DNA of 63,556 bases from Betaproteobacteria bacterium (GTDB lineage Bacteria; Pseudomonadota; Gammaproteobacteria; Burkholderiales; SG8-39): the NCBI GenBank assembly GCA_025356085.1, contig JANXUV010000218.1, forward strand, positions 1-63,556. Direction: 5' to 3'. Each line of letters starts with the position of its first letter. Within the stretch, counting starts at the first letter, position 1. Shown here piece after piece: positions 16,340 to 19,065 of the stretch. Under the pieces are notes generated by a model, which did no database searches, was not told the DNA's origin, and saw only the letters and a program-made list of their open reading frames with translations. A program made the position numbers and the translations under genes.

Positions 16340-17155
16340 ATGTCAGAAACTGAAAAACCGGGCGAGACGACGCAGTTCATCGAGAAGATGGATGCGGAAT
16401 TGCTCGGCTGGGCACATCCGGCGGAGCGGCTGCGCGCGGCACTCGACCACGATCATTTCCGCCTGCATGCGCAGCCGATCGTCGCCCTGGCGCCGCCGGG
16501 CGGCGTGGCGATGGCCGAAGTCCTGGTGCGGCTGCGCGAGGAAGAGGCCCGCATGCTGCCGCCGGGAGACTTCCTGCCCGCCTTCAAGCACTACGGGCTG
16601 ATTGCCGAGCTGGATCGCTGGGTGGTGCGCAGCGCGCTGCGCAAGCTGGGCGAGGGCGGTGGCGCCCTCCGCAGGCTGAGCGTGAACGTCTCCGCGCAGA
16701 CCATCGAGGAGCCGGGCTTCGCGGCGTTTGTTGCAATGCAACTGCGCCTGGCCGCGCTCGCGCCGGCCTGCCTGGTCATCGAAATCGACGAGACCGATGC
16801 GCTGGACCGGCGCGCGGCGGCCGAACGCTTCGCCGCCGGGATGAAGGACATCGGCTGCCAGCTGTTGCTGGATGGCTTCGCGCGGCGCTCGGTGTCCTTC
16901 GACGCGTTCAAGGCGCTGGGGGTGGACTACGTCAAGGTGGACGGCACCCTGGTCCGCAACATCCTGCGCTCGGGCAGCGCCGCCGCGAAGCTGAAGACGA
17001 TCCTGCGCGCCGGCGCGGCGACCGGCGTCGGCGTGATCGCCGAGTGCGTCGAAGACGGGAAGGTGCTCGCTGCCTTGCGCCTGCTGAAGGCCGGATACGT
17101 GCAGGGATTCGGCGTGCGCAAGCCCGAACCGATCGATGATTTGTTCGGATCCTGA
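16340..17155 (+). CDS. Stand-alone EAL domain protein (degenerate loop 6)
   Basis: QPIV, AEVLVRL, SVNVS, YVKVDG, IAECVE, VQGF; DDFGTG replaced by DGFARR. Confidence 0.85.
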   Translation: MSETEKPGETTQFIEKMDAELLGWAHPAERLRAALDHDHFRLHAQPIVALAPPGGVAMAEVLVRLREEEARMLPPGDFLPAFKHYGLIAELDRWVVRSALRKLGEGGGALRRLSVNVSAQTIEEPGFAAFVAMQLRLAALAPACLVIEIDETDALDRRAAAERFAAGMKDIGCQLLLDGFARRSVSFDAFKALGVDYVKVDGTLVRNILRSGSAAAKLKTILRAGAATGVGVIAECVEDGKVLAALRLLKAGYVQGFGVRKPEPIDDLFGS

Positions 17156-17312
17156 TCGGTTGGCGCCAGAATGCGCGACATCAAAGTTGCACACTTCGCA
17201 ACAATCAGGTATTAATCACATCCGTGATGACTGCCAAATCTCGCAACGTTGCCTAGTTCAAGGCCAATCGTTGCGCTTCGTTTTTCCTCTTCGGTAGTTT
17301 TCCGCTTTCCGA

Positions 17313-17378
17313 ATTCAAAGCGCCGGGATTCATTCCGGTGCTTGAATCGCGCGCGCCTTGCTTTGCGAGGAGCGTGCG
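17313..17378 (+). other. Two adjacent stem-loops (putative structured leader)
   Basis: ATTCAA-A-GCGCCGGGA/TTCCGGTGC-TTGAAT (17313-17347) and CGCGCGC-G-CCTTGC/GCGAGG-A-GCGTGCG (17348-17378), both with G-U pairs on the + strand. Confidence 0.55.
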
Positions 17379-17411
17379 TGACAGTACTTCCAAACCCTTA
17401 AGGAGCCCGCT

Positions 17412-17456
17412 ATGGCGAAGAAAAAAGCCAAGAAAAAAGGCAAAAAAAAGAAGTAG
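17412..17456 (+). CDS. Unannotated lysine-rich micro-ORF MAKKKAKKKGKKKK (14 aa)
   Basis: TAAGGAG Shine-Dalgarno 6 nt upstream of ATG; 10 of 14 codons are Lys; TAG stop followed by a hairpin. Confidence 0.65.
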   Translation: MAKKKAKKKGKKKK

Positions 17457-17460
17457 TTAA

Positions 17461-17506
17461 GTGAACTGCGGACGGCCCTGAAGCTCGGGCCGCTCCGCAG
17501 GCTCAC
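17461..17506. terminator. GC-rich hairpin between the micro-ORF and the convergent acyl-CoA ligase
   Basis: CTGCGGA-CGGCCC / GGGCCG-C-TCCGCAG stem with outer GTGA/TCAC; no strong U tract. Confidence 0.45.
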
Positions 17507-17529
17507 GCAGCGCGCAGTTGAGTTGCAGT

Positions 17530-19065
17530 TCAGTTCACGCGGCGCGTTCTGCCCGTCCAGTAAGGCTCCCGCAACACCCTCTTGAGGATTTTTCCGGTTG
17601 GGTTGCGTGGAATCGTTTCCACGAAATCCACCGACTTCGGGCATTTGAAGTGCGCGATGCGGCTTCTCATGAAGTCGATGATCTCGCCTTCGGTCGCCCG
17701 GATTCCAGTTTTCAGCACCACGCAGGCCTTCACCGCCTCGCCCCACTGGTCATCCGGAACACCGATCACCGCGCCGTCGGCCACCGCCGGGTGCTGCATC
17801 AGCGCGTTTTCAACCTCGGCCGGGTAGATGTTCTCGCCGCCGGAGACGATCATGTCCTTGATGCGATCGTGCAGGTACAGGTAGCCGTCACGCAGGTACC
17901 CGGCATCGCCGGAACGGAACCAGCCCAGGCCATCCGGCTGCCGGTCGACGAAGGCGTTTGCGGTGGCCTTCGGATTCGCCCAGTAGCCCCGCATGTTCTG
18001 CCGGCATCGGATCCAGACCTCGCCGACCTCGCCCTCGGGGCAGTCCTTACCCGCGCCGTCGGCTACGCGCAGCTCGACGCCGTCGATCGGCTTGCCCGCC
18101 GAGCGCAGCAAATGCTGCTTCGGGCCGGCCGGATCGTGGTCCTCCGGCGGCAGGCAGGTGATGGCGCCGGTGGTCTCGGTCAGTCCGTACACCTGCATGA
18201 ACTTGCACTTGAAGGTGCGCATGGCGTCCAGCAGCACCTTCTCGGTGATCGGCGAGGCGCCGTAGGAGATGCCTTTCAGCGAGGAATAGTCCGCCTTCCC
18301 TGCGCCGGGCGCCTGCAGCATGAACTGGATCATCGCCGGCACCAGAAAGGAATGCGTGATGCGGTGTTCGGCGATGGCGGCGACCACTTTCGCCGGGTCG
18401 AAATCCGGGTAGAGCACGCTCATGCCGCCCTTGGAGGCGGTGAGCAGCGCGACCCCCACGCCGGCGATGTGATAGGTCGGCAGCGCGTTCAGCATCACGT
18501 CGGGCGCGCCGTGGTAGCCAATTGCCTTCGATACCGACTCGACCATGCTCACCATCAGGTTGCGATGCGTCAATTCCACGCCCTTCGGCAGCCCCGTGGT
18601 GCCCGAGGAATAGAGTTGCAGCGCCGTATCGTCCAGGTCCGGCTGGAAGCCCGGATCCTTGGCCTCGAACTGCGAGTACCAGAATGAAAACTGCTCCGTG
18701 ATGAAAGTCCGGATCTTTCCGTACGGGAAGGCGGCGTCCGCCATCATCAGCTTTGCTTTCCCGTTTTCCACGATGTAGTCGATTTCCGGCGGCGCGAGGC
18801 GCCAGTTCACCGGCATGCAGACTGCGCCGATCTTGTTGGCGGCCAGCACCAGCGCCACGCAGTCGGCGGAGAGCTTGGTCAGGCAGGCGACGCGGTCGTC
18901 CGCGCCGATGCCCAGGCTTTTCAGCCCCTGGGCGATCCGGTTGGAGGCTTCGTCAAGCTGGGCGAAGGTCCAGGTGCGAGCCGGCGCCCAGTAAACGAGC
19001 TCGCCGCCGCGCTCCCGCGCATGGCGGCGGATGGCATCGAGGACGATTTCACCCATCTCAGGCAA
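17530..19065 (-). CDS. Long-chain fatty acid--CoA ligase (AMP-binding)
   Basis: YSSGTTGLPKG, YGLTET, WFRSGDAG, DRIKDMIVSGGENIYPAEVE, GKILKR. Confidence 0.92.
   Translation of the reverse strand: MPEMGEIVLDAIRRHARERGGELVYWAPARTWTFAQLDEASNRIAQGLKSLGIGADDRVACLTKLSADCVALVLAANKIGAVCMPVNWRLAPPEIDYIVENGKAKLMMADAAFPYGKIRTFITEQFSFWYSQFEAKDPGFQPDLDDTALQLYSSGTTGLPKGVELTHRNLMVSMVESVSKAIGYHGAPDVMLNALPTYHIAGVGVALLTASKGGMSVLYPDFDPAKVVAAIAEHRITHSFLVPAMIQFMLQAPGAGKADYSSLKGISYGASPITEKVLLDAMRTFKCKFMQVYGLTETTGAITCLPPEDHDPAGPKQHLLRSAGKPIDGVELRVADGAGKDCPEGEVGEVWIRCRQNMRGYWANPKATANAFVDRQPDGLGWFRSGDAGYLRDGYLYLHDRIKDMIVSGGENIYPAEVENALMQHPAVADGAVIGVPDDQWGEAVKACVVLKTGIRATEGEIIDFMRSRIAHFKCPKSVDFVETIPRNPTGKILKRVLREPYWTGRTRRVN

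Follow-up and report, generated by a model that had tools for sequence, protein, structure and literature searches.

Among the systems closest to the element described here are tiny basic ribosomal proteins, ribosome-dependent attenuator leader peptides, and lysine-rich proteins that resemble histone H1. Specifically, bTHX and eL41 are tiny basic ribosomal proteins, as are bS22 and bL37, which have been overlooked by annotation. Ribosome-dependent attenuator leader peptides include those encoded by the poly-Cys leader open reading frames (ORFs) of mycobacteria. The leader peptide peTrpL, which has 14 amino acids (aa), is reported to act in trans (PMC7298713), and the H1-like protein AlgP of Pseudomonas has been studied in connection with polyphosphate granules (PMC9239181). 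Here, we consider a 14-codon, lysine-rich ORF and the structured RNA that surrounds it, which we refer to as the micro-gene and its unit. They lie in a stretch of 63,556 nucleotides (nt) of DNA from a Betaproteobacteria bacterium of an uncultured Burkholderiales genus (assembly GCA_025356085.1, contig JANXUV010000218.1, positions 1 to 63,556 of the forward strand); this whole stretch is referred to as the window.

The micro-gene shares characteristics with each of these systems and differs from each. Like the tiny ribosomal proteins, it is very short, extremely basic and of a kind that usually goes unannotated; however, its peptide is nearly pure Lys, whereas bS22, bL37, bTHX and eL41 have mixed Arg/Lys sequences with a pattern suited to folding on rRNA. 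Like the attenuator leader peptides, it consists of a very short ORF dominated by one residue inside a structured RNA, but it has neither a consistent co-oriented downstream gene nor, in the folds predicted for it, a terminator/antiterminator alternative, and its genomic context varies. The likeness to H1-like proteins (NCBIfam NF038053, Pfam PF07382 HC2 and Pseudomonas AlgP) lies in Lys/Ala composition and, more directly, in the homology of the micro-gene's 5′ leader and first codons to a gene of 92–123 aa found across its bacterial family. It differs from those genes by carrying a promoter-like block of its own, together with an additional hairpin at the 5′ side and one at the 3′ side, and from their proteins in comprising only 14 codons, too short for a profile test, which takes sequences of at least 20 residues. 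A full-text literature search, with supplements outside its reach, returned no account of bacterial oligolysine micro-genes or of the unit's leader; relative to what is in print, the new elements are a minimal Lys-rich variant of the H1-like proteins and an undescribed two-hairpin leader RNA motif.

Conservation of the micro-gene and its kinship with an H1-like gene

The micro-ORF reads ATG GCG AAG AAA AAA GCC AAG AAA AAA GGC AAA AAA AAG AAG TAG and encodes the peptide MAKKKAKKKGKKKK, with 10 Lys in 14 codons; AAA supplies 6 of the 10 Lys codons, compared with 24.6% AAA in the long ORFs of the genome. It is the sole ORF of 8–45 aa with an ATG, a Shine-Dalgarno (SD) sequence and ≥40% Lys in its own 3.17-Mb genome (64.9% G+C), where a scan for further K-rich micro-ORFs found no other credible one. 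An earlier reading of the window made from its letters alone (the sequence-only reading) had described an SD, a 14-codon ORF, two stems upstream and a GC stem downstream, and all of these are found in the sequence.

Comparison within the genus reveals a consistent pattern of conservation. BLAST against relatives found the entire unit in 12 genomes of the genus, and a covariance model of the leader and ORF (R1), built on 17 unique copies (alignment A1), scores 125–172 bits for the unit in 19 of the 34 genomes of the genus. In a 20th genome, the copy is cut by the contig end just past the SD; in all, the unit occurs in 20 of the 34, and the counts given below refer to the 19 complete copies. The SD, ATG, ORF and stop are retained in all 19, with AGGAG invariant across the 17 copies of A1 and present in 18 of the 19. 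The peptide is unchanged in 16 copies, the variants being MAKKAKKKVKKKK, MAKKKAKKKGQKKK and MAKKAAKKAKKKK; two single amino-acid replacements occur (G to V and K to Q), and the ORF otherwise varies at the wobble positions of codons 2, 10 and 11 (GCG/GCT/GCC, GGC/GGA/GGG and AAA/AAG). Likewise, length differences, assessed by eye, are whole codons: two variants in this genus, one in a second genus (g29) and at least three in a third (g33). Unlike the ORF, the spacer between SD and ATG and the sequence 3′ of the stop are scrambled among copies, and the proteins encoded on either side are 61–79% (EAL) and 79–87% (AMP-binding) identical. Taken as a comparative pattern, these observations argue that the micro-gene is a real, conserved and never-annotated 14-codon gene with substitutions of the coding type, in agreement with the sequence-only reading, which took it for a real coding frame with an SD. 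Readthrough of the TAG into a longer frame was rejected by eye: indels after the stop in the relatives are not multiples of three, and the extended frame is lost. Beyond the genus, a scan with the strict 14-codon pattern (one genome per species, 185,579 species) found 17 loci, of which 15 are in metagenome-assembled genomes (MAGs) of Betaproteobacteria/Burkholderiales with the same leader, one in a Fibrobacteria MAG and one in a Parcubacteria MAG.

The origin of this small gene is suggested by a second gene in the same genome, which encodes a 97-aa Lys-rich protein that also begins MAKKKAKK and has the layout of an H1-like protein, with the C-terminal motif ALNPAAAWPFPTGSRP placed after a K-rich region. 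This protein scores 48.4 bits against NF038053 (hist_H1_lk_Burk), under the cutoff of 80, and 14 against PF07382 (HC2), where the cutoff is 40. Its leader contains hairpin 1 with the AUUCA/UGAAU base, hairpin 2 and the sequence CAAC..CUCUAAGGAG, followed by ATGGCGAAGAAAAAAGC. In 26 of the genus's 34 genomes, the H1-like leader and gene start match the model R1 from end to end (37–97 bits). Furthermore, in 13 H1-like leaders the two helices are 91.7% paired with compensatory changes at 10 of 21 pairs (8 of 14 in the hairpin 1 helix), and the outer pairs of hairpin 2 are 100% paired; thus both classes match the model at full length, and both helices covary in each. This full-length match in the leader and first codons argues that the micro-gene is paralogous to the H1-like gene, as a truncated form that corresponds to its 5′ leader and opening codons; the micro-gene has neither the long Lys/Ala-rich array nor the ALNPAAAWPFPTGSRP motif and stops after codon 14. 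We regard it as very probable that the unit is real, conserved and paralogous to the H1-like gene.

Across the bacterial family, R1 has matches in 55 of 101 sampled genomes, and the two-hairpin 5′ leader precedes H1-like genes in 19 of the 34 sampled genera of these Burkholderiales. Examination of 55 loci outside the genus revealed 44 full-length H1-like genes of 92–123 aa that end in ALNPAAAWPFPTGSRP or close to it, nine micro-ORFs of 15–21 aa, and two loci without an ORF by the filter used. A Lys-rich start is common to three genes of the micro-gene's own genome, the remaining one that begins MAKKKAKK being that of a 95-aa SWIB/MDM2-domain protein (L031:1252-1536, contig C224; start MAKKKAKKAGKKRK).

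The nine micro-ORFs outside the genus lie in six genomes of g29 and g33, and their peptides (MAKKRKAKKAAKKKK(K), and MATKKKAKKKPAKKKK with in-frame variants) all end in KKKK. Only synonymous changes and whole-codon indels separate L104 from L107 in g29 and L102, L110, L111 and L113 from one another in g33 (between L102 and L110, 4 changes are synonymous and none is non-synonymous); L112, with 21 aa, has diverged further with its frame kept. The g29 micro-peptide resembles the N-terminus of the H1-like gene of g29 itself, and the g33 micro-peptide resembles the MATKKKAKK.. N-termini of H1-like genes from other genera. In three g33 genomes (G467, G496 and G538; 92–98% complete), one or two micro-genes of 16–21 aa stand behind the H1-like leader (L102, L110–L113), and a pattern search of the same three genomes found no NPxAAWPFPT C-terminal motif; the short form may have replaced the full-length H1-like gene in this genus. 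Judged from these comparisons, truncated H1-like forms have arisen or been retained in at least three genera.

Two broken copies are worth recording separately. In G463 (L105, contig C28), the TGA stop of a 15-aa ORF encoding MAKKRKAKKAAKKKK shares bases with the ATG of the next ORF, which has 83 aa and the C-terminal motif; this split gene could be the product of a frameshift in the A-rich run or of an assembly error. In G019, there is a 28-aa frame-shifted version of the H1-like gene.

RNA structure, layout and expression of the unit

The features of the unit and its surroundings are given in Table 1.

Table 1. Coordinates of the micro-gene unit, its neighbours and the H1-like paralogue (positions are those of the window unless a locus is named)
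Feature	Position	Strand	Remarks
EAL-domain gene	16340-17155	+	upstream neighbour of the unit
Whole module	17156-17529	+	374-nt intergenic stretch, EAL gene stop to convergent AMP-binding gene stop
Promoter-like block	17187-17215	+	TTGCAC 17187-17192, 17-nt spacer, TATTAA 17210-17215
5′ leader hairpin H0	17242-17275	+	sequence-conserved loop UUGCCUAGUUCAAGGCCAA; minimum-free-energy (MFE) fold
Leader hairpin 1	17313-17347	+	base AUUCA/UGAAU invariant; upper stem covarying; 14 pairs
Leader hairpin 2	17348-17378	+	outer 7 pairs compared across copies; inner stem from single-sequence fold
Shine-Dalgarno AAGGAG	17400-17405	+	6 nt spacing to ATG
14-codon ORF MAKKKAKKKGKKKK and stop TAG	17412-17456	+	ATG 17412-17414, TAG 17454-17456
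3′ GC-rich hairpin	17466-17500	+	13–14 base pairs; MFE fold; outer extension 17461-17506; no clear U-run on + strand
AMP-binding enzyme gene	17530-19065	-	convergent downstream neighbour
97-aa H1-like gene	L029:1421-1813 (own genome, contig C61)		C-terminal motif ALNPAAAWPFPTGSRP

The RNA from 17222 to 17510 folds with a z-score of -4.95 (0 of 200 shuffles fold as well), and its MFE fold reproduces the two consecutive leader stems and the GC stem at the positions that the sequence-only reading gave them. When the 19 copies are aligned to the covariance model, 94.2% of cells in the leader helices are paired and 10 of 21 pairs have compensatory changes, so the stems proposed by that reading do covary in both hairpins; 0 of 500 shuffles reach any of these measures, and slid controls are 29–51% paired. 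This alignment is fitted to the model and thus biased towards structure; an unfitted MAFFT/RNAalifold alignment has compensatory double changes at 9 of 27 predicted pairs. Taken individually, hairpin 1 is 94.0% paired with 7 of 14 pairs compensatory, and the outer 7 pairs of hairpin 2 are 94.7% paired with 3 compensatory. G-U pairs are frequent in these stems (for example, in 7, 6 and 12 of the 19 copies at three pairs), and therefore the structure belongs to the + strand only, as the G-U pairs of the single sequence had been taken to indicate. The micro-ORF is unpaired in both the consensus and MFE folds, with a single stable 3′ hairpin after it.

Two further conserved parts lie 5′ of hairpin 1. 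The H0 block GTTGCCTAGTTCAAGG(Y)CAA is kept in most of the 19 copies, with the conserved loop UUGCCUAGUUCAAGG, and the H0 hairpin was not seen upstream of the H1-like paralogue. Farther upstream, a motif of the form TTGC[AG]N-N17-TATTAA, or one like it, is present in 19 of 19 copies at 85–211 nt 5′ of the model start, also where the upstream gene is a different one; from this conservation and position, we infer that the block is a promoter. The -35-like hexamer often forms one arm of a palindrome, TTGCRC-N6-GYGCAA (17187-17204), that is perfect in L070, L079 and L081 and degenerate in the window, and that looks like an operator for a putative regulator. At the other end of the unit, the 3′ hairpin CUGCGGACAGCCCGG-N4-CCGGGCUGUCCGCAG is kept in approximately 17 of the 19 copies, where inspection by eye reveals compensatory changes. 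In 6–8 of the 19 copies, among them L070, L074, L076, L077, L079 and L084, a small additional hairpin (CCCC/GGGG stem) separates the stop codon from the main 3′ hairpin.

Comparison of the unit with Rfam (all 4227 families, permissive thresholds) yielded ar15 (RF02345) as the best match, with 20.4 bits where the gathering score is 40, and the paralogous H1-like leader was closest to sX14 (RF02233), at 22.5 bits against 80. The likeness to these two RNAs lies in several hairpins with a C/U-rich linker; however, the scores are far below gathering, and the unit is not a member of either. The sequence-only reading had named a match to a described Rfam family as a point that would speak against it, and there is none at gathering score.

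Sequences covering the unit are present in RNA libraries. The data here are assembled Logan contigs of metatranscriptomes, in which strand, ends and level are not readable and gaps are uninformative. One contig of 151 nt spans 17350-17500 with 1 mismatch, and its end coincides exactly with the foot of the 3′ hairpin; further contigs over the ORF cover 17393-17515 with 4 mismatches and 17276-17430 with 10, and the ORF-covering contigs come from the RNA libraries of three studies, as a matter of presence only. The many contigs that match at 17411-17455 and 17800-17890 were set aside as K-rich genes and AMP-binding motifs of other organisms.

Alternative explanations for the unit

On balance, we lean towards a translated micro-gene whose peptide is the product, and several observations weigh against this. 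The unit is missing from 14 of the 34 genomes of the genus and from 7 of the 16 with completeness ≥90% and contamination ≤5%; an eighth genome without it, G004, is 98% complete but 7% contaminated. Given its absence from 14 genomes, the unit is therefore dispensable. In L084, the SD is weak, with AAAGGG in place of AGGAG. A sigma-70 consensus scan called no promoter at the unit, the promoter-like block being a poor consensus match, and a terminator scan called no + strand terminator there, the 3′ hairpin being without a U-run. The contigs, which come from the RNA libraries of three to four studies, demonstrate presence only, and carry-over of DNA is possible; a fourth run covers 17115-17254, which includes sequence upstream of the putative promoter. 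Finally, among the 12 genomes that share the AMP-binding neighbour, which form the codon comparison set, the micro-ORF has 12 invariant sense codons out of 14, and a single Lys codon varies. By comparison, the AMP-binding gene keeps one codon at 75 of 274 fully conserved residues (27%), and at its Lys columns it does so in 3 of 9 cases (0 of 2 for AAA columns). The synonymous sites are thus far more conserved than the peptide requires, which argues for constraint at the RNA level as well.

This last observation can be explained in more than one way. It is possible that nearly the whole 45-nt ORF falls within the footprints of initiating and terminating ribosomes; alternatively, the avoidance of slippage may limit A-runs to ≤8, or a factor may bind the A-rich tract. 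A dual function of RNA and peptide is a possibility that the excess of synonymous conservation keeps alive. The same excess also supports an explanation in which the RNA itself carries out the function, in a regulatory or decoy role: having the leader and translation start of the H1-like mRNA, it would titrate a protein, ribonuclease or small RNA acting on that leader, or else its (ARN)n-like A-rich tract would bind Hfq. In either case, the short ORF would serve just to load ribosomes, with the peptide incidental. That the leader is common to the unit and the H1-like gene across the bacterial family, and that the extra 5′ hairpin with its conserved loop belongs to the micro-gene unit only, would also fit such an RNA. 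However, the copies in g29 and g33 vary freely at Lys wobble positions while keeping the peptide, every version is K-rich up to a stop that follows a run of four or five K, and the same peptide is written with other codons in two unrelated phyla. Likewise, the complements of the conserved 5′ loop in the genome itself are 11-mers only, with no evident mRNA target. We therefore consider a purely RNA-level product unlikely, though of the alternatives it merits the most attention.

It is less probable by far that the unit is a decaying pseudogene, that is, a duplicated H1-like gene shortened by a stop and without function. H1-like genes do get truncated in their A-rich region, as the split gene of G463 and the 28-aa frame-shifted version in G019 illustrate, but 20 of 34 species-level genomes keep the unit, complete with SD, ATG, stop codon, promoter-like block and a 3′ hairpin that covaries. 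Furthermore, a frameshift is found in no copy, while the surrounding spacers have been randomised, and truncated versions are retained in three genera.

The genomic context of the unit bears on a further possibility, namely that the ORF is the leader peptide of a ribosome-dependent attenuator, which would sense Lys-tRNA or stalling on poly(A) and control a neighbour, for example by read-through antisense to the AMP-binding gene. The shortness of the ORF, its 10 Lys codons and the hairpin after it are what such an attenuator would have, and a co-oriented gene lies downstream in 3 of the 19 copies, at approximately 140 nt (L083), 195 nt (L082) and 840 nt (L075). These three genes are, however, unrelated to one another (aminotransferase-like, gamma-glutamyltransferase-like and haloacid dehalogenase (HAD)-like, named by how their translations look), and 15 of the 19 copies are followed by a convergent gene, the other four having unrelated neighbours or none. 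The convergent gene encodes the AMP-binding enzyme in 12 copies (counting L078, whose orientation is inferred from its AMP-binding match as at the other AMP-binding loci), and in 10 of these the upstream neighbour is the EAL gene. In three others it encodes an enzyme of the thiamine diphosphate (ThDP) type, named from its translation; at L074, a 27-residue AMP-binding-like fragment lies between the unit and this enzyme, and at L079 (G017) the ThDP-type enzyme is downstream with no AMP-binding match. There are at least five different downstream contexts in all. Moreover, two relatives have empty sites, in which the EAL and AMP-binding genes stand tail to tail without the unit (G012 and G023; L153 and L154), separated by approximately 16 nt or with overlapping stop codons. 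Given the variable flanks and the empty sites, the unit is a discrete module of 374 nt rather than a classical attenuator, as the sequence-only reading held when it called the unit stand-alone. A co-oriented regulated gene directly downstream was not found among the 19 copies, and neither the consensus nor the MFE folds contain terminator/antiterminator pairings over the ORF, although no dedicated search for alternative pairings was made. In the consensus fold, the ORF region has no structure and forms no alternative pairs with the 3′ hairpin, and G residues placed in register keep the A-runs to ≤8. Control of a neighbour by the ORF is thus highly improbable, and the suggestion in the sequence-only reading that poly-Lys stalling serves to sense Lys-tRNA found no support, as neither a regulated downstream gene nor an alternative structure over the ORF was seen.

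There is hardly any case for a locus with no + strand gene, in which the A-rich tract would be the U-rich tail of an intrinsic terminator of the AMP-binding gene on the - strand: T-rich sequence does follow a GC hairpin on that strand, but the 8-T run begins 16 nt past the stem rather than within the 0–2 nt expected of a U-run and lies some 30–90 nt off, with the extra hairpin in between, in 6–8 copies, the terminator scan calls none there on the - strand, the G-U pairs of the leader stems fit the + strand only, some copies are without that neighbour, and the conserved SD, ATG, stop and codon pattern would go unexplained.

Possible function and similar micro-ORFs in other phyla

If the peptide is the product, a free polycation resembling the tail of an H1-like protein is, by analogy, the most likely form for it to take. 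The sequence-only reading had suggested a histone-tail-like polycation; the kinship part of that idea is strengthened by the homology of the leader and first codons to an H1-like gene, and the function itself we infer. As modelled, the layout of the unit is that of a stable, heavily translated mRNA: the promoter-like block would drive an mRNA of approximately 280 nt, whose long 5′ leader would fold into stable hairpins, followed by a strong, exposed SD and the A-rich, unstructured 14-codon ORF, and the GC hairpin would close the 3′ end. Translation would yield MAKKKAKKKGKKKK, a product of 13–14 residues with ten positive side chains; removal of the initiator Met before Ala would leave a 13-mer. 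Such a peptide would amount to the minimal Lys-rich arm of an H1-like protein without its conserved C-terminal motif. It could bind polyanions, be they DNA, RNA or ribosomes, or polyphosphate, and might supplement the full-length H1-like protein or compete with it, and the leader common to both genes probably stabilises the mRNA, puts the two under a single regulator, or does both. The transcription start, translation, stability of the peptide and its binding partner are all conditional parts of this scheme.

It is worth considering what this locus may mean beyond the genus. It offers unusually clear comparative support for a micro-gene, together with an evolutionary link to H1-like nucleoid proteins in the form of a shared leader and start codons, a split intermediate and one genus that seemingly has the short form only. 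It thereby suggests how tiny polycation genes arise, as the cut-down front end of an H1-like gene, and it raises the question of whether a 13-residue oligolysine suffices for part of the role of an H1-like protein or acts as an antagonist of such proteins. ORFs this small are dropped by gene callers and such peptides are destroyed in tryptic proteomics; therefore, a class of abundant polycations could be invisible. One can imagine, tentatively and with more doubt than confidence, that oligolysine micro-proteins are widespread and overlooked free polycations ("peptide polyamines") that arise repeatedly by truncation of H1-like genes and are kept with dedicated structured leaders. If this is true, the micro-gene locus would be the case that shows the origin of such micro-proteins directly.

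The two loci of the pattern scan outside the Betaproteobacteria are informative in this light. In the Fibrobacteria MAG (L041/L049), the ORF at L049:1454-1498 encodes the identical MAKKKAKKKGKKKK with different codons, is preceded by GGAGGGAGG and has a terminator-like hairpin after it; of 201 sampled genomes of the Fibrobacteria class, the source MAG is the single one that contains a MAKKKAKKK start. The Parcubacteria MAG (L042) encodes MAKKKAKKKAKKKK, likewise followed by a terminator-like hairpin. Among 201 genomes of the order to which the latter belongs, the pattern ATG GCN (AAR)3 GCN (AAR)3 occurs at 16 loci in 15 genomes (L050–L065), compared with 0 matches for the reversed control, and all 16 are ORFs of 10–32 aa. 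Six of them share the strand of a 16S rRNA gene (Rfam SSU) and lie 125–260 nt 5′ of it, three lie before hpf (Ribosomal_S30AE) and two before the gene for S-adenosylmethionine (AdoMet) decarboxylase. The position of Parcubacteria micro-ORFs next to 16S rRNA and hpf genes is a further point of likeness to the tiny basic ribosomal proteins, and these neighbours, including AdoMet decarboxylase, hint that the clients of such peptides are mainly ribosomes or RNA and the balance of polycations, not DNA alone. In several of the 16S-adjacent micro-ORFs, the Lys run leads into a Cys-rich tail (for example, ..KKKKCGGGCE), and a hairpin, CAAATAG..CTATTTG, lies 5′ of five of the Parcubacteria micro-ORFs.

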